A DNA stretch of 26,122 nt from Pseudomonadota bacterium (GCA_039034035.1 JBCCBN010000023.1:1-26122); one strand, 5' to 3'; counted from the first letter of the stretch, positions 2,004 through 25,636 are shown. Notes: generated from the letters alone by a model not told the origin. Program-made: numbers and translations.

Positions 2004-3173
2004 CTAGTCCCCCTCGCCAGGTCCGGACGCTGTATCGGCGCCCCGCCGGGCCAGGGTCACCAGATTGTTCACCAGCCCATCCAGCCCCTGCCCGGTCGCA
2101 GATGTCGTCACATCCAGCCGCCCGATCTTCTCGGTCAGCTTCTCCAGCGTCTCCAGCTCCTTCAGCCGCAGCAGCAGCGGATTGTTCTCCATCAACCGGG
2201 CCGTATTCAGCAGCGACCGCGTAGCGGCGGTCTCCTCGTGCCGGCGGATCAGATTCGCCTGCGCCTGTTTTTCCGCCTCCACCACCCGGTTCAGGATCTC
2301 CCGCATATCGCCGGGCAGGATCACATCCTTCAACCCGACGGACTGAACCTCGATGCCAAGATCGTCCAGCGCATCAAGCGACGCCACCGCATGGGTAAGT
2401 TCTCCATCCAGGCTGCCACGCGCATCCAGCAATCCACCCAGCGTCCGCCGCGCGACCGCATCCCGGATCGCAAACTGGATATAGCGATAGAGCGCGTCCT
2501 TAAGGTCCTTCGCCTGACCCGCTTTCTCGGGATCAGACACCCGCCAGAAGGCTGAGAGCGTTACCCGAACCGAGACCCGGTCCTCGGTCAGGATTTCCTG
2601 CGCAGTGACCTCAAGTCCCTGCCCACGCATATCAACCACAGTGAACGCCACCGCCTGCACCCCCGTCCAGGCGCCATGCCGACCTGGCCCGAGAACGGTG
2701 CGCAAGGCTCCATCCACATGCATCAACGCCTTGTGCCCGACCGGAACAGATTGAACCGAAACCAGTCCAGGCGCCACCCACTCGAATGCGGCAATGTCCT
2801 TTCCGGCGAGCATCGGGGCGTCAGCAATATCGACGATCTCTGCCGAATGTTCCGCCAAGGCCTGCCAGTACGCGCGCCTTTCCCGCGGTGGCACCACATC
2901 GATAACCCGCGTGCCGGCCCGGATGATCCCCACCGAAACCTCGCCCGGCTCCACCACGAGGAAATGTTTCGCCACCAGGTCGGGCCGGTCCCGCTCGATC
3001 GCCTCGAACCGCACGCCGGAATAAACGGGGTGGCGCACGTCCTGGATTTCCACGCGCGTCCGCGGTTCCCGGCCGATCCGATGCCGCCCCGGCCCAAGCA
3101 CGTCCCGAACCCGTCCATCCCGTATCAGCAGGGCCCGCTGGTGGTCTTCAATCGTCACGTGCCGCCGAAACAT
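2004..3173 (-). CDS. SPFH/Band-7 (stomatin/slipin-like) domain protein, no N-terminal TM segment
   Basis: The Band-7 core reads TAQEILTEDRVSVRVTLSAFWRVSDPEKA...YRYIQFAIRDAVARRTLGGLLDARGSLDGEL...LGIEVQSVGLKDVILPGDMREILNRVVEAEKQAQANLIRRHEETAA, followed by a coiled-coil tail. Start chosen at ATG 3173 (MFRRHV..., GGAG at -11). The longer ORF to 3200 would begin with TTG. Confidence 0.75.
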   Translation of the reverse strand: MFRRHVTIEDHQRALLIRDGRVRDVLGPGRHRIGREPRTRVEIQDVRHPVYSGVRFEAIERDRPDLVAKHFLVVEPGEVSVGIIRAGTRVIDVVPPRERRAYWQALAEHSAEIVDIADAPMLAGKDIAAFEWVAPGLVSVQSVPVGHKALMHVDGALRTVLGPGRHGAWTGVQAVAFTVVDMRGQGLEVTAQEILTEDRVSVRVTLSAFWRVSDPEKAGQAKDLKDALYRYIQFAIRDAVARRTLGGLLDARGSLDGELTHAVASLDALDDLGIEVQSVGLKDVILPGDMREILNRVVEAEKQAQANLIRRHEETAATRSLLNTARLMENNPLLLRLKELETLEKLTEKIGRLDVTTSATGQGLDGLVNNLVTLARRGADTASGPGEGD

Positions 3174-3507
3174 CGGGTGTTCTCCAGATAACAGATCCAA
3201 CGGCCTAGCCGATGCGGTTGCCCTTCGCCAAGCGGCAAAGAGAGAACCAGGTCCGCCTCAATCGAACGCCTGCGGGCCATCCGGCATCCACGGACGGGCA
3301 GCGGGGCCTTTCGACGATGCGTCGCCAGCCTTGGCCAACGCGGCACCGCGCCGGTTCCCCACCAGCCGACCATCTCCGCCAGCGGCACAAGGCCGGCGCT
3401 CAATTTGCCGCTCGATGCTGCCCGCTCCCGAAGGATTGGACCGCACCGTCGGCTGAGGGGACCCGGCCTCCCCGATCATTGGACGAGGTTTCTTTCGAAG
3501 ACCTCGG

Positions 3508-3580
3508 GAGTTGCTGAAGGAATCGAACCTTCTACCGTCAGATTAAGAGTCTGATGCTCTACCAGATGAGCTAAGCAACA
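3508..3580 (-). tRNA. tRNA-Lys (anticodon CUU)
   Basis: The reverse complement folds as a cloverleaf. D-arm GCTC/ATCTGGTA/GAGC. Anticodon stem TCAGA/TCTGA with loop CTCTTAA, so positions 34-36 are CTT. Variable loop CGGTA. T-arm GAAGG/TTCGATT/CCTTC. Acceptor TGTTGCT/AGCAACT has 6 base pairs plus a T:T mismatch at 1:72. Discriminator C. No CCA is encoded; the gene is followed by CCG. Confidence 0.8.
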
Positions 3581-4064
3581 TGCGCGTGTGAGGCACATGT
3601 GGTGGCTTTGAAGACTGGAATACGAAACTGGCAGTGCCGCCCGCACCGGCGGGGTCCGGAAGCCCCAACCAAAGTCCAGAAAACCGCGAAAAGACTAGCG
3701 CCGAACTGCCTGCGGTTCCACCCCCATAAGACCCGCTAACGGCTCCTATCCCGACACCTAGACGTCCCAGCGTCCAGCCACGTCTATCTTGACCCAAACG
3801 GACGACGAAACCTTAGGTCGTACGCTTCGTGTTATAGGAGTTTCGGTGGTCGGTCCGTGGTCAATCACGCAAATCCATCACTGATCGTAGCGTATTCCGA
3901 AAAAAGTGCGAAGTGCCGACCGCGCAATCAACGCCTCGCGACGAGCCGCTTGGCCTGCCCCGGACGGACGCATCAGGATTTAGCCGAACGGATCGTTCCG
4001 CACTCAAAATGACATCTACCCACAGAATTCGGGCCGATCCCACGAGCGCTCCTACGACCCATCC

Positions 4065-4373
4065 TCATGTCGCCCCGCCTGGCCCCGTCGCCTCTTTCCC
4101 GGGCAGCCCGAGCCGATACACGCCCTTGAAACCGTCTGGATCAACCGCTCGCCCCTTTCGGTAGATCGCAATCGTTCCTGCCTTCGCGAGCCGGACCGCC
4201 TCGGCTCTCACTTCGGGCAAGACGCTGCGCCAGTTCGCCGGGCTAACGACCTTCGCCGCCTCGGTTGGACAGATCGTCTTTCCGATACCCCGGACCTCAA
4301 CCAGTTCAAGAATCGCTGCGTGCACCGGCTTGCGGGCAGGTTCGTCGCTGCTTTCAGCCATCGATTGCGGCAT
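4065..4373 (-). CDS. DUF3253 domain protein
   Basis: 102 aa. The segment HAAILELVEVRGIGKTICPTEAAKVV...WRSVLPEVRAEAVRLAKAGTIAIYRKGRAVDPDGFKGVYRLGLP matches the conserved DUF3253 pattern (GKTICPSE...W...V..AA..LA..G.I...QKG..VDP). Overlaps the upstream hydrolase gene by 20 nt. Confidence 0.65.
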   Translation of the reverse strand: MPQSMAESSDEPARKPVHAAILELVEVRGIGKTICPTEAAKVVSPANWRSVLPEVRAEAVRLAKAGTIAIYRKGRAVDPDGFKGVYRLGLPGKEATGPGGAT

Positions 4374-5589
4374 AGACCAATTGCTGGAATTGCGGCCGGA
4401 TCGGAAAACACCCTGAGGGGATCATTTGGGTCATCTGGATCGCGACCAGGTCTTCCACCGGATCGATCCAGAAGAAGGTGTTCGCCAGCCCGCCCCAACT
4501 GAACGTGCCCAGCGAACCGGGCGACAGCGTTTCGGCGACATCGACAACAACGCTGCCGCCCAGGCCAAAGCCGTTCCCCTCCATCCGCGCTTCGGAGAAG
4601 GTCCTGTCGCCCATTTCCTTGATCGTCTGATTTCCCGGTAGATGGTTCAGGGTCATGAATTCCACGGTCTTGGGCGACAGAAGGCGGACATCTCCTCGCC
4701 GGCCGCCATTCAAGAGGCACTGGCAGAACTTAAGGTAATCCCGCGGCGTCGATACCAACCCGCCACCGGCATTCAGCAAAGGCGGCTGGCTCCGATAGAG
4801 CCGGCTTTCCGGCCCTCCGCCATCGCTGAGACTGATCTCGCCCGTCTCGGGATCGCGGGCATAACAAGCCATGAGGCGCGACAGCTTGGCCTCGGGAACG
4901 AAGAAATCGGTGTCCGCCATGCCGAGCGGTCCGAAAATCCTTTCGCGGAAGAACGCATCGAGCGTCTTGCCCGACGCGACTTCGACAATCCGGCCCAGCA
5001 CATCTGTCGAGTGGCCATAATTCCAGCGCGTTCCGGGCGAGAAGACCAGCGGCAGGGCCGCGAGCCGGTTGCACATCGCTTCGAGGGTTTCATCCGGTCG
5101 GGCGATCTTGTGCTCGCGATAAAGCGCATCCACCTCGGTCTGCATGAGGAACCCATAGGTCAGCCCCGACGTGTGGGTGAAAAGATCCCGCACCTGCATG
5201 GATCGGTCGGCGGGGCGGGTCTTGATACCATCGGGTCCTGCGCCATCGAAGACTTCGGTGCCGGCAAAAGCGGGGATATAGCGCGAAACCTCGTGGTCGA
5301 GCCGGATTGCGCCTGCCTCGAACAACATCATCGCAGCGACGGAAGTGATCGGCTTGGTCATCGAATAGATGCGGAAAATCGTATCTGAGTCGATGGATTG
5401 ATTACCGCCCAGCTCAGTACAGCCCCGATAGGCCTCGTGAACCACCGTGCCTTCCCGTGCCACCAGAGTGGCCATGGCGGGGAGTTTGCCGCTGCTGATA
5501 TAGGCGGACGCGAAGAAGTCCGGGATGGCATCGAGCCGCGCCGCATCCATGTTCATTGCGGCCGGTGCCGCCCCGCTTAAATCGTCCAA
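4354..5589 (-). CDS. serine hydrolase, class-C beta-lactamase/esterase family (PBP4*-like)
   Basis: 411 aa. The active-site S-x-x-K lies within FRIYSMTKPITSVAAMMLFEAG. YGHSTDVLG and a WGG...G motif follow, as is typical of AmpC-related esterases/transpeptidases. The start could be the internal M (MNMDAARLD). Confidence 0.8.
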   Translation of the reverse strand: MDDLSGAAPAAMNMDAARLDAIPDFFASAYISSGKLPAMATLVAREGTVVHEAYRGCTELGGNQSIDSDTIFRIYSMTKPITSVAAMMLFEAGAIRLDHEVSRYIPAFAGTEVFDGAGPDGIKTRPADRSMQVRDLFTHTSGLTYGFLMQTEVDALYREHKIARPDETLEAMCNRLAALPLVFSPGTRWNYGHSTDVLGRIVEVASGKTLDAFFRERIFGPLGMADTDFFVPEAKLSRLMACYARDPETGEISLSDGGGPESRLYRSQPPLLNAGGGLVSTPRDYLKFCQCLLNGGRRGDVRLLSPKTVEFMTLNHLPGNQTIKEMGDRTFSEARMEGNGFGLGGSVVVDVAETLSPGSLGTFSWGGLANTFFWIDPVEDLVAIQMTQMIPSGCFPIRPQFQQLVYAAIDG

Positions 5590-5654
5590 TCATGCCTCCC
5601 AGGCGTTTATTCTCATCATCTCATCTGTTCCATCCATTCGCGGAACCCAGCTCC

Positions 5655-6815
5655 CTACAATGCGCCGGCCTTGGCCTGCTTGGCCAGTTCGCGGCCAATG
5701 ATGATCTGCTGGATCTGGGTTGTGCCCTCATACAGCCGAAAGATTCGAACATCGCGATAGAACCGCTCGATACCATAGTCCGCCACATAGCCGGCCCCAC
5801 CGAATACCTGCACCGCCCGGTCGGCCACCCGGCCCACCATTTCCGAAGCGAACAGTTTGCACGATGAAGCGAGCATGGTGACGCTTTCGCCCGCGTCGCG
5901 CCGGCGGGCCGCATCCAGAACCATGCATTTGGCGGCATAGGTTTCGGCCTGGCTGTCGGCCATCATTGCCTGGATCAGTTGGTGGTCAGCCAGCGGCTTG
6001 CCGAATTGCTGGCGCTCCACCGCATAGGTCGCCATCTCCTTTACCAGCCGCTCGGCGACGCCCACGCACACTGCAGAGATGTGCAGCCGGCCCTTGTCCA
6101 GTACGCTCATGGCCACCTTGAACCCCTCACCTTCGCCGCCGATCCGGTTTTCCACAGGCACCCTGGCGCCCTCGAATATCACGTCGCAGATATGGGCGCC
6201 CTGTTGGCCCATCTTCTTCTCCGGCGCGCCGATAGAAATGCCGGGCGTGGCGCGGTCGACGACGAAAGCCGAAACGCCCTTGGCGCCAGGCGTACTGGGG
6301 TCAGTGCGCGCCAGAACGGTGAATACATCCGCAACGTTCGCATTGGTGATATAGCGCTTGGTCCCGTCGAGGACATAGTGGTCGCCATCGCGAATTGCGC
6401 GGGTTTGAAGGCTGCCTGCGTCTGATCCGGCCTCCGGTTCGGTAAGGGCGAAGCTGGCAATCAAATCACCGGATGCGATGCCCGGCAGGTATTTCTCTTT
6501 TTGCGCATTGGTACCGAACAGGACCAGGGCCTGGCTGCCGATCCCGACATTCGTTCCGACAACCGATCGGAACGCTGGGCTTGTGTGACCCAGTTCCATG
6601 GCCACCAGGCACTCGGTCTCCATATCGAGACCCAGCCCACCATAGGCTTCCGGCACCGCTATTCCAAACAGGCCAAGTTCCTTCATGGTGTCGACCACGC
6701 CGGGCGGCACCATGTCTTCATCGCCGACCTGGCCCTCGATCGGGATGCAAGTTTCGGTGACGAAACGGCGCACCGTCTCGATCAGCGCCGCACGGAGTTC
6801 GGTATCAAATGCCAT
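5655..6815 (-). CDS. acyl-CoA dehydrogenase
   Basis: ACAD hallmarks throughout. N-terminal alpha domain ends in GLFGIAVPEAYGGLGLD. Middle beta-barrel contains LTEPEAGSDAGSLQTRA...YVLDGTKRYITNA. C-terminal region has QVFGGAGYVADYGIERFYRDVRIFRLYEGTTQIQ. Start taken at MAFDTEL (ATG 6815, GGGAG at -10). The ORF extends in frame to 6866. Confidence 0.9.
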   Translation of the reverse strand: MAFDTELRAALIETVRRFVTETCIPIEGQVGDEDMVPPGVVDTMKELGLFGIAVPEAYGGLGLDMETECLVAMELGHTSPAFRSVVGTNVGIGSQALVLFGTNAQKEKYLPGIASGDLIASFALTEPEAGSDAGSLQTRAIRDGDHYVLDGTKRYITNANVADVFTVLARTDPSTPGAKGVSAFVVDRATPGISIGAPEKKMGQQGAHICDVIFEGARVPVENRIGGEGEGFKVAMSVLDKGRLHISAVCVGVAERLVKEMATYAVERQQFGKPLADHQLIQAMMADSQAETYAAKCMVLDAARRRDAGESVTMLASSCKLFASEMVGRVADRAVQVFGGAGYVADYGIERFYRDVRIFRLYEGTTQIQQIIIGRELAKQAKAGAL

Positions 6816-6950
6816 CAGGCGGTCTCCCGGTTCTTGTATCCATCTGCGTGACAGAATAAGCCGCAATCATGGACTTGTCGAAGGTGAAACCGGCTCGGGG
6901 TCTCGCGCCCGTTCGCGCGGTGAGCCAGCAACAGGAATGAGGGGCGGAGC

Positions 6951-8006: not shown

Positions 8007-8261
8007 ACGCTCCGTCTATCGTCCATCCGCACGAAGTTTGTGCAACAAATATCCGGCCAAGTCAAAACGCAAGTCCAATTTTCTTTTACTCAAGTACTCG
8101 TTTCTCGAAATCTGGAATATCGCGCCTCCATTTCGGGAATCACGCTCCGACGAGCGCATTCGCTTTTGCATGGTCTTTTCAACTCGAATAACAAGCGACC
8201 TCTTTACTTGTGCGTCTATTTCATTCACCAACACTGTAATGATCGAGTTTGGGAGCGGCAC
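8007..8261. promoter_or_regulatory. AT-rich (~40% GC) divergent promoter region between the TetR gene and the repeat-protein gene
   Basis: Runs such as caattttcttttactcaagtactcgtttctcgaaatctggaatatcg and ctctttacttgtgcgtctatttcattcacc contrast sharply with ~65% GC in the flanking DNA. It ends in a GGGAG RBS 6 nt before TTG 8262. Confidence 0.6.
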
Positions 8262-9266
8262 TTGAAACATCTTCTGTCCTTGATTTTCGCCAGTCTCGCT
8301 GTCGCCGCGCCGGTGTATGGCCAGGCCGCCGATCTGCCGCCCAGCGCGTTACCGGGGCAGTGTTTCACCCGGGTTGTTTCGCCTACAATCACAGAGACCG
8401 TCACTGAAACCGTTCTCGTCCGGCCTGAGACAGAGCGATTCGAACTCGTGCCCGCCGTGTTCCGGCCATCGACTGAACGCGTGCTCATTAAGGAGGAAAC
8501 GGTCGCATTTCAGATGGTGCCAGCCGTGTACGAAACCGTCACCGAGGACATCCTCGTTGAGCCAGCACGGACGGTGACCGAGCCGGTGGCCGCCCAATAC
8601 GAAACCTACAGCGAAACGATAATTATCACGCCCGAGAGGCAAGTCTGGAAACCCGGCCGCGGCCTGATGGGACGGTCATCCGCAACGCCCGAGGGCAGCC
8701 CGCAGGCGACGGGCGACCTGTTGTGCCGGGTTGTCGAACCGGCGGTGACCCGGACCGTGGAACGGATCCGGCTTATCTCGCCACCAACGACACGGGAACG
8801 GATGATCCCCGCAAGATTTGAAACCGTTTCCCGCCGCGTGATCGTGACGCCGGCCCGGATCGAAGAAGTGATAGTTCCGGCTGAATACCGCGACGTGCCG
8901 ACCCAGGTGCTCGTCACCCCAGCCGAAGAGCGGCGTGTCGTGGAGCCCGCGGTCTATGAAACCGTCACTCGGCAAGAGCGCGTGGGCGGGGGAGACGTGG
9001 TCTGGGCCGAGGTGCTGTGTGAAACCAACACAACCCGCTTCAAAGTCGCCGAGATCCAGGGTGCGTTGACAGACGCCGGCTATCCAACGCGGGTCGACGG
9101 CGTGTTCGGGCCCGACACATTGCGGGCGATGCAGCGGTTCCAGCAGGACGAGGCCCTCGCCGAAGGATACCTGACCATTGATACGGTGCAGGCGCTTGGC
9201 ATAAATCCCTATGAACGACCACCAGATCTGGTCTTCGCCCTGCTTGGATCCCACGCTGACGCGTGA
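8262..9266 (+). CDS. secreted tandem-repeat protein with C-terminal peptidoglycan-binding (PG_binding_1-like) domain
   Basis: Reannotated start TTG 8262 (GGGAG RBS at -6). The listed ORF from 8040 runs through the AT-rich, promoter-like DNA. Signal peptide LKHLLSLIFASLAVAAPVYG/QAAD. Then ~8 degenerate repeats, e.g. VPAVFRPSTERVLIKEE, VPAVYETVTEDILVEPAR, VAAQYETYSETIIITPER, IPARFETVSRRVIVTPAR, VPAEYRDVPTQVLVTPAE, EPAVYETVTRQERV. The C-terminus AEIQGALTDAGYPTRVDGVFGPDTLRAMQRFQQDEALAEGYLTIDTVQAL fits the PG-binding-domain pattern. Confidence 0.7.
   Translation: MKHLLSLIFASLAVAAPVYGQAADLPPSALPGQCFTRVVSPTITETVTETVLVRPETERFELVPAVFRPSTERVLIKEETVAFQMVPAVYETVTEDILVEPARTVTEPVAAQYETYSETIIITPERQVWKPGRGLMGRSSATPEGSPQATGDLLCRVVEPAVTRTVERIRLISPPTTRERMIPARFETVSRRVIVTPARIEEVIVPAEYRDVPTQVLVTPAEERRVVEPAVYETVTRQERVGGGDVVWAEVLCETNTTRFKVAEIQGALTDAGYPTRVDGVFGPDTLRAMQRFQQDEALAEGYLTIDTVQALGINPYERPPDLVFALLGSHADA
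8370..8984 (+). repeat. protein-level tandem repeats (~8 x 22-24 aa, consensus [VI]-P-A-x-[YF]-E-T-V-[TS]-E-x-[VI]-L-V-x-P-[AE])
   Basis: Periodicity was read directly from the translation (residues ~111-315 of the listed ORF). The DNA copies are diverged, so they are not a simple nucleotide repeat. Confidence 0.6.
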
Positions 9267-9337: not shown

Positions 9338-10336
9338 GTGTTTACGCTTTCCATCCTTGACCCGACGCCAATCCGGACCGGCCAAACCGCCGCAGCAGCC
9401 TTGGATGAAACGCGCGCGCTCGCAGAGCTGGGCGACCAACTTGGATACCGCGCATACTGGGTCCAGGAACACCACAATACAGCAAGCTTTGCCGGCACCG
9501 CGCCAGAGGTCCTGATCGCCGATCTTGCCGCCCGGACACGCAAGATTCGCGTAGGATCCGGGGGAGTCATGCTTCCCAACTACTCTCCCTTGAAAGTGGC
9601 AGAGCAATTCATGACGCTTTCGGCGCTCAATGCAGGCCGGATTGATCTGGGCATCGGGCGCGCCACGGGCGCTGATCCCCGCACCTCCGCTGCCTTGCTG
9701 GGTCCCGGCGCGCAGAGTTTTCCGGCCCTGTTTCAGCTCCTGAAAGATTGGCTGCTGGAAGCTGCAGGCACGCCGCTACCCGACAATCACAAGGCAGTGG
9801 GCATCCATGCCCGTCCCATGGCCGGGTTGCCGGACCTATGGCTGCTGGCATCATCGGCCGAAAGCGCCGCTTATGCCGGGGCAGTTGGCGTGAAACTCGC
9901 CTTCGCAGAATTCTTGTCGCCGACTGGCGCCGCTGAAGCGATCGCGGCCTATCGCGACAGCTTCTCCCCGTCGCGCTTCTGCGCAACGCCTCACGCTGCC
10001 ATCGGCACCCTCGCCCTGGCCGCCGATACCGAGGCGGACGCTGAGCGGGAAGCGCGGGTTGGCCTCGCCTGGAACGTTGTTCGCGCCACTGGCCGTTTCG
10101 CACCATTCCCATCGCCTGAAGAAGCAGACGCGATCCTCGCCCGCGCAGACACGGCTCTGTTGCCAACCTTACGCGCGCGAAACTTGTCCGGAACGGCCGT
10201 CGATGTCGCGCAGACGCTGCGCTCGCACATGTCGGAAATCAACGCAGACGAGGCATTTGTCCTAACGATTTCGGCAACGATTCCCGCGCGGGCCCGATCC
10301 TATCAACTCCTGATGCAAGCGTGGCGGGACCGCTGA
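9338..10336 (+). CDS. LLM-class flavin-dependent oxidoreductase (luciferase-like monooxygenase, MsnO8-type)
   Basis: 332 aa with a GTG start. MFTLSILDPTPI...ALDETRALAELGDQLGYRAYWVQEHHNTASFAGTAPEVLIADLAARTRKIRVGSGGVMLPNYSPLKVAEQFMTLSALNAGRIDLGIGRA is the canonical N-terminal TIM-barrel signature of this family. Confidence 0.85.
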   Translation: MFTLSILDPTPIRTGQTAAAALDETRALAELGDQLGYRAYWVQEHHNTASFAGTAPEVLIADLAARTRKIRVGSGGVMLPNYSPLKVAEQFMTLSALNAGRIDLGIGRATGADPRTSAALLGPGAQSFPALFQLLKDWLLEAAGTPLPDNHKAVGIHARPMAGLPDLWLLASSAESAAYAGAVGVKLAFAEFLSPTGAAEAIAAYRDSFSPSRFCATPHAAIGTLALAADTEADAEREARVGLAWNVVRATGRFAPFPSPEEADAILARADTALLPTLRARNLSGTAVDVAQTLRSHMSEINADEAFVLTISATIPARARSYQLLMQAWRDR

Positions 10337-10358
10337 CCTGCCGGCCGCACTGCCGGGA

Positions 10359-10976
10359 CTATGGGGCGGCAAACGGAAGGGCTTTCATGCGGGCACGCCA
10401 AGCGCCGATGTGTTCGTACTCCTCATGCGGTTTCCATCGCATGAGCGCACAAAAACCGCAGGTCAAATGGGTCGTGATGTCAGCAATCGAAAACCGACCT
10501 GCCGCGACAAACTCATGGTCCTTGAGGTGGTCATCCAGCCGCTTCACAAAAGCCTTCACGTTGCGCTCGGCTTTTTCGGCGGTGCCTTCGCATTGCGGGT
10601 TTTCAAGCGGGGCCATTGCCGGATGGCTGTTCCGAAACCATTGGGCGAACGGCATCATGAACATGAATTCGATGCGGCGGTCCCACATCTCGATCAATCC
10701 ACGCTCTTTCGGGTCGGTTCCCATGAGATTGGGATCGGGGAAAAGGCCTTCGAGATAGGTGCAAATGGCGCGGGATTCGGTCATCGCCGTGCCGTCGTCG
10801 AGCACGAGCACCGGAACCTGCGCGAACGGGCTGAGCGCGCGGTAGGCATCTGTCCGATGCTCCTGCTCCATGATCGAGACTTGCTCGATCTCAACCGTAT
10901 CGAGCCGTCCTTTCGCCCGAAGAAAGTGCACGACGCGTTCGGGGTTTACGGCTTTGGGTGCGTGATAGAGTTTCAT
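10359..10976 (-). CDS. glutathione S-transferase
   Basis: 205 aa. N-terminal thioredoxin-like domain: MKLYHAPKAVNPERVVHFL...AQVPVLVLDDGTAMTESRAICTYLEGLFPDPNLMG. C-terminal helical domain follows. GGAGG RBS at -5. Confidence 0.8.
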   Translation of the reverse strand: MKLYHAPKAVNPERVVHFLRAKGRLDTVEIEQVSIMEQEHRTDAYRALSPFAQVPVLVLDDGTAMTESRAICTYLEGLFPDPNLMGTDPKERGLIEMWDRRIEFMFMMPFAQWFRNSHPAMAPLENPQCEGTAEKAERNVKAFVKRLDDHLKDHEFVAAGRFSIADITTHLTCGFCALMRWKPHEEYEHIGAWRARMKALPFAAP

Positions 10977-11012
10977 GGCGAGGCCTCCAATCGCGGATTT
11001 GATGTGACGGGT

Positions 11013-13115
11013 TCAGCGGAACCGTTTCCGGATACCGAATGTGGCATTCAAAGGCTCACCTGGGAAATAGCGGTCATTGCCGAATGCGAAATCTGCCCGG
11101 TCGGCATACTCCAGATCGAAGAGGTTACGGACGAGCAAGAACCCGTCGAGCGTTTCGGTGATCGCGTGCTCCAGCCGGAGATGGGTCAGTGTGTGCCCGG
11201 GATACTGTCGCGAGCCGGACGGGTTTGACACGTATTCGCCGATGTATTCGAAGCGCAGCGACACATCTGTCCGGTCGTCATGGGCATAGGTCAGCGCCGC
11301 ATCGGCCAGCCATTCCGGCGCGGTGTCGATGGGCTCGCCCTGTTTGATCGCTTCGGACGCGTTGCCGACAGGACGGCTGAAATCATAGGTCTGGTCCGAC
11401 CAGGCGAGCGAGCCCGACAGGCGCAGTTCGCGTCCCATGACCAGCGTCGACTGCCAGAGCAGTCCATTGAGCGCCAGCTCCAGCCCCATATGGTCTGTCC
11501 GCCCATCGGGCACGTTCAGCCCATCGGCATCGCGGAAGAAGAAATTCTTCTTCTCCATCCGGTAGACCGCCGCGTCAAAGGCCAACTCACCGATCAGTCC
11601 CCGAATGCCCAACTCACCTGAATCAAGCGTCTCCGCTTCCACTTCTCCGGCGATCTGCTGCGATTGCAGCCGGTAGAGATCGCTCGCCTGGGGCGCCCGT
11701 TCGCCCCGCGCATAGTTGGCGTAGACGTCCACCGTCTCGCTCACTGCGAACACGGCGCCGAGCTTCGGCGTCAGCAGGGCGAACGAATCGGACCGGTCTT
11801 CGGCCACGTTGAACCGGCCATTGATCCCCGCCGGAATGTTGGTGGTATAGTCATAGTCATGGTTCTCGGCCCTGAGGCCGGCCAGCACGAACAGCCGGCC
11901 GGTCACCTGCCAGTCCACCTCGCCCCAAAGGGCATAGGCCTGGGTCTCGACATCGTAGTCATAATGGGTGCCGACCGGGAACCGCGTGTCGCCCGGGAAG
12001 AAGCCGAACGGATCGTCCTGGGTTTCCTTGAGAAACCCAGTCGCGATATCGGCATCGGCCCCGAGGGTTACCGACACGGCCTCCGACAGGGCGATGTCCT
12101 CCCACCGCGCCTGGACTCCGCCGCCGGTATGCCCGTTCTCCTCGAAGCCGCGATAGGGCAGGAAGTGCTGGCGGAAGCTCATGTTCTGGGTGCGGGCGAA
12201 GGGGGTCAGGCTGAGCGTGCCGGCGGCGGCGGCACGCTCAAACCGGATCGCAGCGCGGGCCGAGCGGGCGTCGCGGCCGGCTTCCGGATTGGGGTTTGAG
12301 CGGGCGATATCCCGGTCGCGATAGGCCTTGAAGCCCTGGATGAAGCCGGCGGTTTCCTGGTGCATGTTCTGCAGGCTGAGCCAGGCCGTCGCGTCCCAGC
12401 CGCCGAGCCGGCTCTCGCTCACCAGCGACAGTTTCTGCTGGTCAAGGCCAGTGAAGTCCCGCCAGCCCACATCCTTCTGGAGCGACACGCCGACGGTCGT
12501 GGATCGCCCGAGGTCGATAGTGCCTTCGCCCTTGTAGCGTTGGAGCGTCGATGCCGAGAGACGCAAGTCCGCACCGCCTTCTCGCCCGCCCGGCTCTGGA
12601 AGGAAGACGTTGATGAGGCCGTGGACAGCATTAGAGCCGAACTTCGCGCTGCCCGGCCCGCGCACCACTTCCACCGCAGTCGCCACCTCATGGTGCGGCT
12701 CGATGAGGCTGTTGACGTTTCCAAACGCCGGCGATCGGGTCGGCACGCCGTTTTCCAGGATCAGGAAGCTGCCCTGCCCCGCCCCGCCGGTCAGTACGGG
12801 TGAGCGGATGGCGATCAGGTGCTCCTGGCCGGAATTCATCTGGATGTTGACGCCCGGCAGCGTGTTCAGGAGTTCCGCCGGATGGTCGGCCGCCAGCGTG
12901 ATGACGGTCTCCGCGTCAATCACGGAATAGCTGCCCGGCTCCCCTTCCGCCCGGTCGCCATAGACAACGACCGGATCGTACACGATCACGCCCGAATCGG
13001 GCGCACTCTGCCGGCCCAGTGCCGCGTCCGCCCCTTCCGCATCACTCCCCTGCGCGCTCACCGACAAGGCGAACGCCGCCGCGCCGCCCACCAAGCTCAA
13101 GCCTCGCATACTCAA
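11013..13115 (-). CDS. TonB-dependent outer-membrane receptor
   Basis: 700 aa. Signal peptide MSMRGLSLVGGAAAFALSVSAQG. TonB-box/plug region reads VIVYDPVVVYGDR...SVIDAETV...LNTLPGVN...RSPVLTGGAGQGSFLILENGVP...VEVVRGPGSAKFGSNAVHGLINV, followed by a long beta-barrel. The C-terminus ...FGIRKRFR is slightly atypical because it is not a terminal aromatic. Its start lies 3 nt after the nupC stop. Confidence 0.85.
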   Translation of the reverse strand: MSMRGLSLVGGAAAFALSVSAQGSDAEGADAALGRQSAPDSGVIVYDPVVVYGDRAEGEPGSYSVIDAETVITLAADHPAELLNTLPGVNIQMNSGQEHLIAIRSPVLTGGAGQGSFLILENGVPTRSPAFGNVNSLIEPHHEVATAVEVVRGPGSAKFGSNAVHGLINVFLPEPGGREGGADLRLSASTLQRYKGEGTIDLGRSTTVGVSLQKDVGWRDFTGLDQQKLSLVSESRLGGWDATAWLSLQNMHQETAGFIQGFKAYRDRDIARSNPNPEAGRDARSARAAIRFERAAAAGTLSLTPFARTQNMSFRQHFLPYRGFEENGHTGGGVQARWEDIALSEAVSVTLGADADIATGFLKETQDDPFGFFPGDTRFPVGTHYDYDVETQAYALWGEVDWQVTGRLFVLAGLRAENHDYDYTTNIPAGINGRFNVAEDRSDSFALLTPKLGAVFAVSETVDVYANYARGERAPQASDLYRLQSQQIAGEVEAETLDSGELGIRGLIGELAFDAAVYRMEKKNFFFRDADGLNVPDGRTDHMGLELALNGLLWQSTLVMGRELRLSGSLAWSDQTYDFSRPVGNASEAIKQGEPIDTAPEWLADAALTYAHDDRTDVSLRFEYIGEYVSNPSGSRQYPGHTLTHLRLEHAITETLDGFLLVRNLFDLEYADRADFAFGNDRYFPGEPLNATFGIRKRFR

Positions 13116-13118
13116 CTC

Positions 13119-14396
13119 CTAGAGAAACAGTCCGACCGGCAACGCCCCCACAACCGCTCCTGACATGCACGTAGCCAAGGTACCAGCAATCAATGTTTTC
13201 CAAGCCAGCGAAAGGAACGTGTCCCGGCGTTCGGGTTCAATAATCGTTAAGCCGCCGATCAGGATGCCCATTGAGCCGAAATTGGCGAAGCCGCAAATGG
13301 CGTGAGCGGTGATGATGCGGGTCCGTTCGCTCATTTCCGCGTCGGGGGTTGCGGCGAGTTGGAGGAACGCGACGAACTCGGTGAGAACGGTCTTCACACC
13401 CATAAGGGAGCCCGAGCGGGCCGCTTCCTCCAACGGCACACCGATCATGTACATCAGCGGCATGAAGAGCCATCCGAGGACGCGCTCGATCGAGAGGGGC
13501 GCTCCGGCGACGTCTGGCAGGGCTCCGAGCATGGCATTTGCGAGATACAGTAAGGCGAGCGCGGCGATCAGCATCGTCATGATGTTCAGGACGATCTTCA
13601 GTCCGTCGGCGGCCCCGGTGGCGAAAGCGTCCATGGTCGACTGGTATTCGAAATCGGGTTCGTGGGCGCGTTGTTCGGTGGCCGTCGCTTCGGGGACCAT
13701 GACGAGGGCGAGCGCGACGGCAGCGGGGGCGGCCATGATTGAGGCGGTGAGAAGCTGTGCAAGGGGATTGAAGCTGACGCCGGCGTCTTCAAGGAAGGTG
13801 ACATAGATGATCAGGACACTACCGGCGATGGTGGCAAAACCGGTGGTCATCAGAATGAAGAGTTCTGACCGGGTCATGCCCTTGAGATAGGGCTTCACCA
13901 GGACCGGCGCCTCGGTCATGCCCATGAAGACATTGGCTGAGACCGCGAGCGATGTGGCCCCACCCAGGCCCATGGCACGGCGAAAGACGAAGGCGAACCC
14001 CTTGGTGACCCATCGCAGGATACGCCAATGCCACAGCATGGCCGATAGCGCTGCCACGACGATGACGATGGGCAGGATCTGGAAGAAGAAGAGCGGCGGC
14101 GCGTCGCCGGCCATGATCGCGCTGGCTTGCTCGTTGTTGCCGATATAGCCGAACACGAAGCCGGTCCCGGCCCGGGTGGCGTCTTCCAGGGCATCGACAA
14201 TGATATTGGCGCTAAACAGGACGCCGCGGACGGGTGGCACCCCGAACAGCAACAGGGCAAAGACGAATTGGAGCGCCACCGCGCCAAGCACGATGCGCCA
14301 GGGAAACACAGAACGATTTTCAGACAATCCAAACGCTATGCCGATGATGAGGGCGATACCAAGCAGTGCCCTGAGATTATCCCACCCCCATTCCAT
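13119..14396 (-). CDS. nupC: concentrative nucleoside transporter, NupC/CNT family
   Basis: 425 aa polytopic membrane protein. The N-terminal MEWGWDNLRALLGIALIIGIAFGLSENRS is family-typical. The C-terminal GFANFGSMGILIGGLTIIEPERR corresponds to E. coli NupC SFANFSSIGIIAGAVKGL. GGAGGG RBS. Confidence 0.85.
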   Translation of the reverse strand: MEWGWDNLRALLGIALIIGIAFGLSENRSVFPWRIVLGAVALQFVFALLLFGVPPVRGVLFSANIIVDALEDATRAGTGFVFGYIGNNEQASAIMAGDAPPLFFFQILPIVIVVAALSAMLWHWRILRWVTKGFAFVFRRAMGLGGATSLAVSANVFMGMTEAPVLVKPYLKGMTRSELFILMTTGFATIAGSVLIIYVTFLEDAGVSFNPLAQLLTASIMAAPAAVALALVMVPEATATEQRAHEPDFEYQSTMDAFATGAADGLKIVLNIMTMLIAALALLYLANAMLGALPDVAGAPLSIERVLGWLFMPLMYMIGVPLEEAARSGSLMGVKTVLTEFVAFLQLAATPDAEMSERTRIITAHAICGFANFGSMGILIGGLTIIEPERRDTFLSLAWKTLIAGTLATCMSGAVVGALPVGLFL

Positions 14397-14578
14397 ATGC
14401 CCGACTTCCCTCCAATACTGCCGAACGGACGCTAGACGGCCCCGGTGGAAAATGAAACAATCCTTTCACATTCGGAACACCGCCGCCTCGAAGGAGGGCA
14501 CTGCTTGACCGCCGGCTCACCCGCCCGCCTGGAAGGACTTCCTGGCGTTGACGCGAAACGATGCGGAGGACTGGTAGA

Positions 14579-14983
14579 ATGAGTATCGAGCGTGACCTGA
14601 GGGGTCACCACCCGGAAGATGACGCGATTGGCCTGAATGAGGGCCTTTTGCCGGAGGACCTTCAAGGGCTCACCACCGACGACATTGCCGGCATACTGGC
14701 CTCGACCGAGACGCTTGAGGCGCGCCATCAGCGCCTGGTGTCGATCCGTGACCAGCTTGAGACGCTGAGCCACACAGGCGGCGAAGATGTCGACGGCGCC
14801 GGTGCAGTCGGGACGCTGATAAGCGCCGTGGAGGGCGCGCTGCAGCGGCTTGAACATGGGCGGAGCCATCCAGGCGGGCGGTATGGCGCGGGGCTCGACC
14901 CGGACGGCAGGGCCGATACCCAATCGCCTGACGATTTGCTGGCTGATGATTGGCGCTTGTCGGTGGATCCGACCCATCTCTAG
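14579..14983 (+). CDS. hypothetical acidic protein
   Basis: Start at ATG 14579 (MSIERDL...), with a GGAGGA RBS 6 nt upstream. The Asp/Glu-rich sequence has no recognisable domain. The overlapping minus-strand ORF 14432..15097 is Arg-rich and was judged a shadow. Confidence 0.4.
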   Translation: MSIERDLRGHHPEDDAIGLNEGLLPEDLQGLTTDDIAGILASTETLEARHQRLVSIRDQLETLSHTGGEDVDGAGAVGTLISAVEGALQRLEHGRSHPGGRYGAGLDPDGRADTQSPDDLLADDWRLSVDPTHL

Positions 14984-15130
14984 GATGGGGTGGGCGCGGA
15001 GGTGAACCGGGCGACGCCGAATTGTGCCTGATCGTGGCCGCCTGTTCGGCGCCTGGGCATCTGAACGCTTTCGTCCCGGGCCCTCCTCTCGCGGCATCGT
15101 CGCGTCGTAGCGAAGATGCCGCCGGCTGGA

Positions 15131-15628
15131 TCAGTAGCTGTTCTTGATGAACATGACCTTCCGGATGATCGACACGGTCTCGTCTTCGAGGCCCATATAA
15201 TCAGAGATTTTCTTCAGAAAGGCTTCTTCGCTATCGCGGAACTTCCGGTCGGCCAGGACGATGTCCATGCAATGGGTATAGACCGACATGCGCATGTCGC
15301 GGGGGAGCACCCGGCAGGCCTCCTTGATAGAGCCTTCCCGGTCGGCCTTCACGCGATCGATCACGGTCTGGTTGACCTGCGCCAGGCGCTCGGGGGTAAG
15401 CCGCTTCATGGTTCGGCAGCGCCGGACAAGGGCGGCGATTTCCTGTCGCTCTTCGGCGGCCATTTCGCCGTCGGCAAAAGCGGCTTCCAGGACCAGGCAC
15501 AAGAACGCTTCCGGCATGCTCCAATCGGAGTCGCTGTCGTCGAACATCCGCTCCGCTTCGTCCAGATCGGGGAGTTCGTTGGGTTCAGGGTCACCCGCGG
15601 GGAAAAGGATCCTCATTTCGGTCGTCAT
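15131..15628 (-). CDS. TerB-like (tellurite-resistance TerB family) domain protein
   Basis: 165 aa, all-helical. FLCLVLEAAFADGEMAAEERQEIAAL...ACRVLPRDMRMSVYTHCMDIVLADRKFRDSEEAFLKKISDYMGL matches the TerB pattern (aDG.v...E ... and a second half with D/E). GGGAG RBS. Confidence 0.6.
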   Translation of the reverse strand: MTTEMRILFPAGDPEPNELPDLDEAERMFDDSDSDWSMPEAFLCLVLEAAFADGEMAAEERQEIAALVRRCRTMKRLTPERLAQVNQTVIDRVKADREGSIKEACRVLPRDMRMSVYTHCMDIVLADRKFRDSEEAFLKKISDYMGLEDETVSIIRKVMFIKNSY

Positions 15629-15755: not shown

Positions 15756-16361
15756 CTAACAATTCTCAGGATCCGTACATGGGCGCGGCTGGGGACCCGC
15801 ACGGCGCGCTAGGCTATCACGTTGCCGTTGCAACGCTGCCAAGTGATTTCGGAGACTGGTCTGCGCTGTGCCAAGCTCGAGGATGAGCGTTTCGCGATTC
15901 CAATCAGGGGTTTCTGGCGGGGTAGCGTCCCGTTGCGAGATCGAAGCCCCTCGAGAGCGGCGTTCGCGCACCACATCCGCGATTTCGGCCTTCTTCGCTT
16001 CGATATCCTGTTCGAGCCCTTCAATCTCGGCGACGCCGCGTGAGATTTCGCCGAGCCCGGCAAGCTGGTCGACCAATCGGTCGCGTTCGTCGGTGATGCG
16101 CTCCAACTCTCTGACTTCGGCCTCAAGCCGGATCTTGTCCTGTTCGAGGCTGCTGACATTCCCCGACAAGAAGAACCATGTGGCGCCGGCTGCGAGGGCG
16201 GCAACCAGCAGGGAGAGCAAGATGGCGGATGCAGTCGAAAGGCCCACGCGCTTATACTCTATTTCGGCTTCGTGTGAGGGGTGGGGAAACAGGGTTCGGG
16301 CTTCAACCACCATGGGCGGCGGCCTGTCCTGGGGATCTACGTCGTAATCACTGGACGCCAT
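15756..16361 (-). CDS. hypothetical membrane-anchored coiled-coil protein
   Basis: 201 aa. Pro-rich N-terminus, one TM helix (ILLSLLVAALAAGATWFFL), then heptad-like LEQDKIRLEAEVRELERITDERDRLVDQLAGL...IEGLEQDIEAKKAEIADVVRERR. Strong GGAGGG RBS. Confidence 0.6.
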   Translation of the reverse strand: MASSDYDVDPQDRPPPMVVEARTLFPHPSHEAEIEYKRVGLSTASAILLSLLVAALAAGATWFFLSGNVSSLEQDKIRLEAEVRELERITDERDRLVDQLAGLGEISRGVAEIEGLEQDIEAKKAEIADVVRERRSRGASISQRDATPPETPDWNRETLILELGTAQTSLRNHLAALQRQRDSLARRAGPQPRPCTDPENC

Positions 16362-24039: not shown

Positions 24040-24660
24040 ATGCGCCATGATGACATATGGAGAGGCATAGATGCCCTCGCCGCCGCGCATGGCATGTCCG
24101 CATCGGCCTTGGCGCGCAAGGCTGGACTGGACGCCACTGCGTTCAATCCGTCAAAACGGTTCAGCAGTGGCGGTCGGCCCCGCTGGCCCTCGACCGAAAG
24201 CGTCGGCCGGGCGCTCGAAGCGGTCGATGCATCGTTGGGGGACCTTGCTAATCTGATCGCGAACAAGCCGGACGGAAGCCGGATACCGATCATTGGTTTT
24301 GCTGAGGCGGGTCGGGACGGTTTCTTCGACGCAAAAGGGCTGCCGACCGGGCGGGCCTGGTCGCAGGTCACCCTGCCGGCCGGCACCGATGATGCGCTGT
24401 ATGCGTTGGAAGTTTCTGGCACCTCGATGTTACCAACTTTTCGTCCAGGTGACCGCCTTATCGTTGCGCCGAAAGCAGATGTTTCACCCGGTGACCGGAT
24501 TGTCTTGCGGACCAGTGATGGAGAGGTCATGGCCAAGGAGTTGGTTGAGCGGAGAAAGGGGCTGGTTTCGGTCCGTTCCTTGAACCCGGACTTTTCGCCT
24601 CGCTCGGTGCCTGAATCGGAGATAACATGGCTGGCGCGCATTCAATGGGTAAGCCAGTAA
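24040..24660 (+). CDS. CI/LexA-like transcriptional repressor (N-terminal HTH plus C-terminal S24 peptidase domain)
   Basis: 206 aa. HTH: MSASALARKAGLDATAFNPSKR. S24 domain with Ser nucleophile in ALEVSGTSMLPTFRPGDRLIV and the downstream Lys region ...DGEVMAKELVERRKG.... GAGGAGG RBS. Confidence 0.7.
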   Translation: MRHDDIWRGIDALAAAHGMSASALARKAGLDATAFNPSKRFSSGGRPRWPSTESVGRALEAVDASLGDLANLIANKPDGSRIPIIGFAEAGRDGFFDAKGLPTGRAWSQVTLPAGTDDALYALEVSGTSMLPTFRPGDRLIVAPKADVSPGDRIVLRTSDGEVMAKELVERRKGLVSVRSLNPDFSPRSVPESEITWLARIQWVSQ

Positions 24661-24718: not shown

Positions 24719-25636
24719 ATGGACTGGAGCAAGCTCAAATCATTTCACGCAGCGGCGGAATCTGGCAGCCTGACGGGTGCCGGCGAGAAGCTGGGTATCT
24801 CGCAATCGGCGGTGTCACGGCAGATCGCTGCGCTCGAGGAGCATCTCGGCGTATCCCTGTTCCAGCGCCATGCGCGGGGCCTGGTGCTGACCGATGCTGG
24901 GCACACCCTGCACACGTCGACCCAGGACATGGCCGCGGCGGCCGCATCAGCGAATTCAGCCTTGCAAGACCAGCAGGATACGCCGCAGGGCGAATTGGTG
25001 GTGACTGCGCCGGTAGCGTTCGGATCGACCTGGCTGGTTCCGCGGTTGGGCGGATTCATCGACCGGCACCCGGACCTGCATCTGGACCTGCGGCTGGATG
25101 ATCGCGAATACGACCTGCTGAAGCTGGAGGCCGAATGCGCGATCCGTTTGTGGGCGGCCGACAAGGCGGACCTGATCCAGCGCAAGCTCGCCTCGGTTGC
25201 CACAAGTCTCTATGCGGCACCGGCTTACCTAGAACGCTATGGCGTGCCTGAACGCGCGGCAGACCTGGACAGGCACCGCATCATCGGTTTCCGGCAGGAC
25301 GGCGCGCCGGCACAGATGCAGGTGATGAACTGGGCCCGCCAGATTGGCCGGGATGACGCGCCCCCGCGACCAGCAGCGCTGCAGGTCAACAATGTGTTTG
25401 CAATGCTGCGGGCGGTTCATGCCGGGTTGGGCATTGCCGACATTCCCGACTATATGGCCGCCACCCTGCCTGACCTGGTCCGGTTGCTGCCCGATGAGAC
25501 CGGACCAGCGTTCGATCTCTACTTCATATATCCGAGCGATTTGCGGCGGTCGAAGCGGATTTCTGCGTTCAGGGATTTTCTCACCGGCGAAGCAGAATCG
25601 CTGCGCTTGAACCGGAATGCGCGCCCCCGATCATAG
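24719..25636 (+). CDS. LysR-family transcriptional regulator
   Basis: 305 aa. The N-terminal LysR HTH reads MDWSKLKSFHAAAESGSLTGAGEKLGISQSAVSRQIAALEEHLGVSLFQRHARGLVLTDAGHTL. The C-terminal substrate-binding domain follows. Confidence 0.9.
   Translation: MDWSKLKSFHAAAESGSLTGAGEKLGISQSAVSRQIAALEEHLGVSLFQRHARGLVLTDAGHTLHTSTQDMAAAAASANSALQDQQDTPQGELVVTAPVAFGSTWLVPRLGGFIDRHPDLHLDLRLDDREYDLLKLEAECAIRLWAADKADLIQRKLASVATSLYAAPAYLERYGVPERAADLDRHRIIGFRQDGAPAQMQVMNWARQIGRDDAPPRPAALQVNNVFAMLRAVHAGLGIADIPDYMAATLPDLVRLLPDETGPAFDLYFIYPSDLRRSKRISAFRDFLTGEAESLRLNRNARPRS

Follow-up and report, generated by a model that had tools for sequence, protein, structure and literature searches.

The minus strand of a 26,122-nt contig from a Pseudomonadota bacterium (GCA_039034035.1, JBCCBN010000023.1:1-26122; "the window" below is this whole stretch) carries three closely packed genes, for a nucleoside permease, a TonB-dependent receptor and a glutathione S-transferase (GST), which may encode a two-membrane nucleoside scavenging route with energised outer-membrane uptake. 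Gene context and the conserved substrate pocket of the permease point to this reading, to which we give roughly an even chance. The first gene, nupC (13119..14396), encodes a 425-aa concentrative nucleoside transporter of the CNT family (SLC28/NupC; Pfam), the second (11013..13109) a 698-aa receptor with Pfam Plug and TonB_dep_Rec_b-barrel domains (700 aa if read from TTG 13115), and the third (10359..10976) a 205-aa cytosolic-type GST with GST_N and GST_C domains. Open reading frames (ORFs) and Pfam matches agree with the first-pass annotation on this layout, namely three genes on one strand at these positions, a full-length receptor and the GST 36 nt beyond it.

The nupC/receptor junction (13110..13121, minus strand) was read from the sequence as ctc-TAG-GAG-TTG-AGT-ATG: the nupC stop TAG (13121..13119) is overlapped by an AGGAG Shine-Dalgarno, a TTG lies 3 nt on (13115) and an ATG 9 nt on (13109). 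Because the AGGAG precedes ATG 13109 by a 6-nt spacer, and because the 9-nt spacing from nupC stop to ATG is seen again in many related loci, the receptor more likely starts at 13109 than at 13115, which leaves 9 nt between the genes and a protein of 698 aa; the 3-nt gap first reported would hold only with TTG 13115. GGAGG stands ahead of the GST ATG, and with gaps of 3-9 nt and 36 nt and a Shine-Dalgarno overlapping the nupC stop, the three genes are packed as in an operon, as had been proposed. A consensus scan of 10200..15200 returned no promoter-like site (no sigma-70 consensus match) and two terminator-like sites, one inside nupC and one near 15123..15140, below the shuffled expectation of 3.2. 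The presumed promoter and regulatory region is the 164 bp 5' of nupC (14397..14560, no strand assigned), shared with a divergent 140-aa ORF. We infer co-transcription as one unit for nupC and the receptor gene, joined in the marine clade by the GST gene.

The nupC-receptor pair is widely conserved in Hyphomonadaceae. A profile from 23 receptor sequences, applied to one genome per species, gave 80 related loci, which were searched with the window proteins. Receptor relatives at 57-77% identity were found in Hyphomonas, Henriciella and Hyphomonadaceae metagenome-assembled genomes (MAGs), and the order nupC-receptor-GST also in one Hyphomonas and one Henriciella genome with partly different flanks. 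In about 65 of the 69 loci whose receptor is at least 52% identical, nupC lies 5' of the receptor gene in the same orientation; the remaining four end at a contig edge. Carriers of the pair are Hyphomonas, Henriciella, Ponticaulis and MAGs, the gap between the two genes is at most about 100 nt in 58/65 loci, and identity in paired loci goes down to 52% (receptor) and 58% (NupC). Full 7-kb flanks are available for 40 loci, of which 39 encode NupC and 38 the GST, compared with 21 for an acyl-CoA dehydrogenase, 13 for a beta-lactamase-fold protein, 4 for a luciferase-like (LLM) oxidoreductase and none for the remaining window neighbours. Given this difference between NupC and GST and the other neighbours (0-21/40), the nupC-receptor pairing is beyond chance, and the two genes have stayed paired over considerable divergence even as most of what surrounds them was altered.

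A non-marine Hyphomonadaceae clade has the arrangement S46 peptidase-nupC-receptor with no GST, its NupC being about 58-61% identical to that of the window; in L169 and one further annotated non-marine locus, nupC follows the same-strand Peptidase_S46 (dipeptidyl-peptidase) gene after 26-32 nt. The GST is missing in L059-L062, L065 and L169. Since this clade keeps the pair without the GST, the core conserved unit is nupC plus receptor, to which the marine clade added the GST. An ORF of L062 (3349-5439) has the size and position of the S46 peptidase gene, whose L169 counterpart spans 2900-4969, and is on that basis a candidate for it. The synteny that the first-pass annotation had offered as a check on its proposal, conservation of the pair across Caulobacterales/Hyphomonadaceae, holds across Hyphomonadaceae, the taxon that it had guessed correctly, and is not seen with the 41-47% identical receptors of other Caulobacterales, which have no nupC nearby.

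NupC is a credible nucleoside carrier with an intact pocket, judging by its alignment with solved transporters. All three Pfam domains (Nucleos_tra2_N, Gate and Nucleos_tra2_C) score above their gathering thresholds (C-terminal domain E 9e-66), and the protein aligns over its full length with vcCNT (3TIJ, E 5e-68), nwCNT and CNT3. N155, G159, T161, E162, V194, E340, F370, N372 and S375 correspond to vcCNT N149, G153, T155, E156, V188, E332, F366, N368 and S371, respectively, and 8/9 residues of the vcCNT binding set (HP1 G153-Q154-T155-E156, V188, HP2 E332 and TM7 F366/N368/S371) are identical. The ribose-contact and Na+ site residues of vcCNT are all kept in 60+ orthologues. At 320.8 bits, NupC is below the cut-off (442) of NCBIfam TIGR00804, the nupC subfamily model, and on this score is a divergent superfamily member outside the narrow NupC subfamily.

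The sole pocket change is M160 at the position of vcCNT Gln154, a residue that touches the uracil base directly (PMC4139061). Met occupies this position in the window and in 62/64 marine-clade loci covering it; G-Q, the canonical pair, is found in the non-marine clade (89/120 matches). Pyrimidine-selective hCNT1 becomes broadly selective, with a shift toward purines, upon S319G/Q320M, and hCNT2-like and purine-selective when S353T/L354V are added, while hCNT3 has G/Q/S/V at the four selectivity positions (PMC7440666). Because the window NupC has G/M/S/V at these positions, Met being the hCNT2-type state, and because the hCNT1 mutants shift selectivity as they do, we infer that it accepts or prefers purines. 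The clade with a G-Q NupC also has the receptor, and the receptor pairing is therefore independent of that residue.

The receptor is recognised by Pfam Plug (E 7.5e-11) and TonB_dep_Rec_b-barrel (E 2.4e-40). Read by eye, its N-terminus is signal-peptide-like (MRGLSLVGGAAAFALSVSAQ), a PVxVYGDR motif at residues 46-53 is conserved, and the last residue is Phe. An AF2 model from a 24-sequence alignment has 22 well-formed barrel strands and a mean pLDDT of 64; its plug (pLDDT <50) is unreliable, and the model was used for the strand count and fold search only. All Foldseek matches of the model are TonB-dependent transporters, the best being YncD and PqqU with pyrroloquinoline quinone (PQQ) (TM 0.69-0.72), with Fiu and FecA barely behind. 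The nearest solved structures by sequence are the Bordetella copper transporter CrtA/BfrG (9RVQ; PMC12914433) and the Pseudomonas haem receptor PhuR, which match at E ~2e-9 over part of the barrel only and are too distant for substrate transfer. None of the NCBIfam receptor families reaches its cut-off (siderophore 93 bits vs 223, haemin 69 vs 317, BtuB 49 vs 836), and by these searches no characterised homologue appears near enough to point to any substrate. A Pfam scan of the receptor gave Plug and barrel only, with no Tsx-family match there or in the other scanned window ORFs.

An HMMER search (E<=1e-30) placed the receptor in a discrete, uncharacterised family of at least 339 clusters at 50% identity. 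Three groups were compared in an alignment of 168 family members. The nupC-linked receptors have invariant Q112 and G130, no Cys and a short loop, and alphaproteobacterial receptors at 41-47% identity have Ala at both of these plug positions. Eleven positions are specific to the nupC-linked receptors: Q112, N120 and G130 in the plug, and L189, D195, A356, T389, H417, T423, V435 and T690. These receptors form a discrete clade with its own invariant plug residues (Q112, N120, G130), a point in favour of the nucleoside reading. Gamma-type receptors (L083-L168) have four invariant Cys, a plug pair and a loop insertion, C...GxGGC, some 10 residues long (window residues 112, 130 and ~428-436), which are missing in all alphaproteobacterial members; the alphaproteobacterial branch may thus have lost two disulfides.

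In the two-membrane reading that we favour, the receptor would provide high-affinity nucleoside binding at the cell surface and pass the nucleoside to the periplasm via TonB-ExbBD and the proton-motive force, and the CNT symporter would then concentrate it in the cytoplasm by cation-coupled transport, with a purine-accepting G-M-S-V pocket in the marine clade and the canonical G-Q in the non-marine one. The receptor would take the role that the passive Tsx channel has in enterobacteria. A bolder form of this proposal, which we put forward tentatively, is that Hyphomonadaceae swapped passive Tsx-type entry for a dedicated nucleoside gate of high affinity, powered through TonB and with translational coupling to a CNT, and that base preference was retuned (Gln to Met) on a move into seawater.

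Genes for TonB-dependent receptors frequently sit in one cluster with the gene for the inner-membrane transporter of the same substrate, as in the fhu and fec operons and Xanthomonas suxA-suxC, and the two-step reading fits this rule. To our knowledge, tsx and nupC of Escherichia coli are not in one operon. The E. coli Tsx + NupC/NupG system is otherwise the closest in logic, with the same inner-membrane CNT family and a dedicated outer-membrane nucleoside entry feeding a cation-coupled symporter. Tsx is, however, a small passive substrate-specific channel without plug or TonB box (PMC11658791), whereas the partner here is a predicted 22-strand plugged TonB-dependent receptor, and entry would therefore be energised and of high affinity. 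The reading also fits Caulobacterales because TonB-dependent receptors of this order import maltodextrins and N-acetylglucosamine: MalA and NagA of Caulobacter crescentus are TonB-dependent transporters taking up a sub-600-Da nutrient and not an iron chelate (PMC11658791), and one report points to missing porin genes in C. crescentus (PMC4659666). Their substrates, like those of the Xanthomonas carbohydrate-utilisation (CUT) loci, are sugars, and such loci usually include catabolic enzymes and a regulator, unlike the nupC operon, which has neither. Of the features of a CUT locus or polysaccharide utilisation locus (PUL), the operon has the clustered receptor and inner-membrane transporter genes and lacks degradative enzymes and a regulator. 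The MalA, NagA and CUT receptors also have no close sequence kinship to the window receptor, for which no characterised family reaches its cut-off.

The claim that nucleosides are poorly documented as substrates of TonB-dependent receptors is borne out: a 2024 review of TonB-transporter substrates names nucleosides for the Tsx channel alone (PMC11658791), and otherwise the literature yields only SusC-type DNA and ribose systems of Bacteroidales. These are DdbCD, from a DNA-utilisation locus, whose TonB-dependent transporter handles DNA breakdown products (PMC12478041), and Rus, a SusC-type system described for ribose and nucleosides (bioRxiv 574913). Both share with the operon a transporter of the outer membrane that is TonB-dependent and, for the operon by prediction, tied to nucleic-acid-derived nutrients, and differ in being SusC/SusD two-component systems of another phylum, in PUL-like loci with nucleases or hydrolases, in contrast to a lone proteobacterial receptor with a CNT symporter. 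Neither a description of a nucleoside TonB transporter from Proteobacteria nor data on the Hyphomonadaceae genes discussed here came up in full-text literature searches.

Several observations weigh against a nucleoside substrate. Pfam, NCBIfam and Rfam scans detected no nucleosidase, phosphorylase, nucleotidase, nucleoside-responsive regulator or riboswitch in or beside the operon, and the third co-conserved gene encodes a GST without a known nucleoside link. The modelled plug is unreliable, as noted above, and the 11 clade-specific receptor positions stand against 87 conserved family-wide; the substrate may therefore match that of a family otherwise unlinked to nucleoside genes, the small number being compatible with a modest specificity change and equally with an unchanged substrate. 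The pair itself is not uniform: five loci (L038, L041, L044, L046 and L052) have a gene for a membrane protein of about 250 aa, TauE/SafE-like by eye, between nupC and the receptor gene, L035 has a comparable gap of about 850 nt, and one locus has them separated by 6 kb. The TauE/SafE-like insert of L046 and L052 is accompanied by another membrane gene, for about 490 aa.

The relatives without nupC, whose neighbourhoods were followed over 5-7 kb, also count on this side. Twelve loci with 41-47% identical receptors (Robiginitomaculum, Maricaulaceae and other Caulobacterales MAGs) lack nupC over 7 kb and do not have any neighbour in common, and nupC was found in 0/86 gammaproteobacterial or metagenome loci (six genome look-ups and 80 metagenome loci), which have no universal partner either. 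Because the 12 next-closest loci and the 86 gammaproteobacterial relatives lack nupC, the link is taken to have arisen once, at the base of Hyphomonadaceae, and the approximately 70 loci are therefore not independent observations. The step from operon to nucleoside-importing receptor made in the first-pass annotation accordingly stands in part. Packing, Hyphomonadaceae synteny and the intact NupC pocket speak for it, and the single origin, the lack of a nucleoside enzyme or regulator and the distance to any characterised homologue speak against it. As a guilt-by-association assignment, a nucleoside substrate is reasonable for the receptor, and like the base preference of NupC it is stated here as a prediction. 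An attempt to read a family-wide substrate from gene context was dropped for want of a universal partner in the 12 + 86 loci.

The alternative that survives best, which we regard as unlikely, is that the receptor imports a non-nucleoside compound, for instance a metal chelate or some other small nutrient or cofactor, and that adjacency to nupC is inherited and means co-expression at most. The single origin of the pairing, the few clade-specific substitutions and the varied neighbours of the 12 alphaproteobacterial and 86 gammaproteobacterial loci, where family members have no nucleoside link, are all as this account would have them. It is also consistent with a functionally mixed cluster, in view of the GST as third gene and the S46 peptidase upstream in the non-marine clade, and with regional synteny beyond the trio (acyl-CoA dehydrogenase 21/40, beta-lactamase-fold 13/40). 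It sits less well with a pair that outlasts divergence to 52%/58% across marine and non-marine clades with most neighbours replaced, with the short gaps, constant strand and coupling of the receptor start to the nupC stop, and with siderophore, haem, B12 and PqqU models that all score below cut-off.

Import of a larger nucleoside-containing compound (nucleotides, short oligonucleotides of dissolved DNA or RNA, NAD-type dinucleotides or a modified nucleoside), trimmed in the periplasm by phosphatases or nucleases with genes elsewhere before transport by NupC, seems to us distinctly improbable. The operon evidence is the same as for free nucleosides, and in Haemophilus periplasmic dephosphorylation precedes nucleoside uptake. 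The Bacteroidales DdbCD system is a further precedent, for DNA breakdown products (PMC12478041). However, none of the examined clades has a nuclease, nucleotidase or phosphatase gene within the operon or next to it. The receptor, at ~700 aa, is also a small single component without a lid lipoprotein partner, and its top structural matches, PqqU/YncD, carry a 330-Da ligand, though their lead over other transporters is marginal.

A PqqU-like importer of PQQ or a similar small aromatic cofactor is highly improbable, and the model cut-off together with the binding signature led us to reject it: the receptor scores 51 bits against the PqqU equivalog NF041535 (cut-off 1200), the signature Y99(F/W)/R304/R365 (PMC12124388) becomes A110/Q308/F368 in a profile alignment to E. 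coli PqqU, a low-confidence region with a family-conserved R306 two residues from the R304 position, and no PQQ enzyme lies near the nupC-linked loci. In favour of a PqqU-like importer are the narrow Foldseek lead of YncD/PqqU over Fiu and FecA and the PQQ-dependent dehydrogenases adjoining two gamma relatives (L084 PQQ-dependent alcohol dehydrogenase, L085 GSDH). E. coli PqqU (YncD) is nonetheless the best mechanistic analogue, being the top structural match, of similar size and a single component, and it scavenges a planar heteroaromatic ligand of about 330 Da at very low concentration (PMC12124388). At 18-21% identity, with the NF041535 score and the signature as above, the window receptor is not a PqqU member.

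The role of the GST is probably accessory and is unexplained under every reading. Its best solved relatives are 4N0V and yeast Gtt2, neither of which gives a substrate clue, and the GST was dropped as such a clue since it is a generic cytosolic GST.

If the nucleoside reading is correct, the receptor would be the first TonB-dependent transporter specific for nucleosides to be known from Proteobacteria and would extend a known system type to another substrate. A receptor family with more than 300 clusters, widespread in marine Alpha- and Gammaproteobacteria, would thereby receive its first substrate assignment. In marine heterotrophs, TonB-dependent receptors rank with the most abundant proteins, with no substrate assigned for most, and nucleosides and nucleotides are a significant labile share of dissolved organic nitrogen and phosphorus. 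Matches to Hyphomonadaceae receptors in ocean metagenomes and metaproteomes would become interpretable, and the system could be an entry route for nucleoside-analogue antibiotics. Culturable carriers exist in Henriciella marina, Hyphomonas atlantica and Ponticaulis koreensis.

Receptor family members are numerous in marine gammaproteobacteria, e.g. Pseudomaricurvus, Porticoccus, Kangiella and Litorivivens. The commonest gamma-type neighbour is a divergent queF (preQ0 reductase) gene, present in 13-14/86 loci: it lies 16-282 nt upstream in L086, L088, L122, L131, L133, L137, L140, L147, L153, L155, L160 and L163, and 932 nt upstream in L109. Because signal recognition particle (SRP) RNA and tRNA genes are common to them, the queF loci appear to be one syntenic lineage. 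No preQ1 riboswitch was found at these loci, and the neighbour is a weak lead toward uptake of a 7-deazapurine or queuosine precursor. Just upstream of the receptor gene, the Porticoccus contig (L084, 2347-4503) encodes a PQQ-dependent quinohaemoprotein alcohol dehydrogenase and the Kangiella contig (L085, 3856-4986) a GSDH-type PQQ-dependent dehydrogenase. Gamma-type neighbours also include a GST and an AraC regulator in a Pseudomaricurvus relative; this GST has no detectable kinship to the window GST at 1e-8.

Riboswitch or leader control of the operon was rejected, all Rfam scans being empty: there was no riboswitch or leader at gathering score over the window or over nine orthologous loci, and no match 5' of nupC even at E<=1. 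No k-mer of 7-10 nt occurs in all 57 orthologous nupC upstream regions as a common operator would, the commonest being in 17/57, and a TGAAA-N7-TTTCA-like repeat spotted by eye 5' of nupC in the window is not conserved. The divergent 140-aa ORF (14561..14983, plus strand) has no Pfam match, none of the 80 related genome loci contains a homologue of it, and it may be a lineage-specific gene or no gene. A 221-aa ORF on the opposite strand (14432..15097, minus), without a Pfam match and with an Arg/Pro-rich translation, was taken as a spurious shadow of it.

Upstream of the operon, on the same strand, are genes for a TerB-domain protein (15131..15628, 165 aa; Pfam) and a 201-aa protein that is predicted to span the membrane once and has a coiled-coil-like tail (15756..16361), neither of which is near the operon in related loci. 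Downstream, 22 nt separate the GST stop from the end of a convergent gene for an MsnO8-family luciferase-like oxidoreductase, and a few kb further on lies an acyl-CoA dehydrogenase and beta-lactamase-fold gene pair (4354..6866, minus strand). This pair occurs again in a Hyphomonas genome (L001, 10724-13123), and its recurrence, with the 21/40 and 13/40 counts, therefore indicates some regional synteny beyond the trio. A 408-aa ORF (8040..9266, plus strand) has a C-terminal PG_binding_1 domain (Pfam) and a long repetitive V/T/E/P-rich stretch ('VTETVTETV', 'ERFELVPAVF'); its listed GTG start is probably too far upstream. The sole RNA gene found in the window is a tRNA-Lys (CTT; 3506..3580, minus strand). 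Near the far end, a Peptidase_S24 (LexA-like) gene (24040..24660, plus strand; Pfam) is followed by a candidate LysR-type-regulator-like ORF (24719..25636), recognised from its translation alone; both are unrelated to the nupC-receptor finding.

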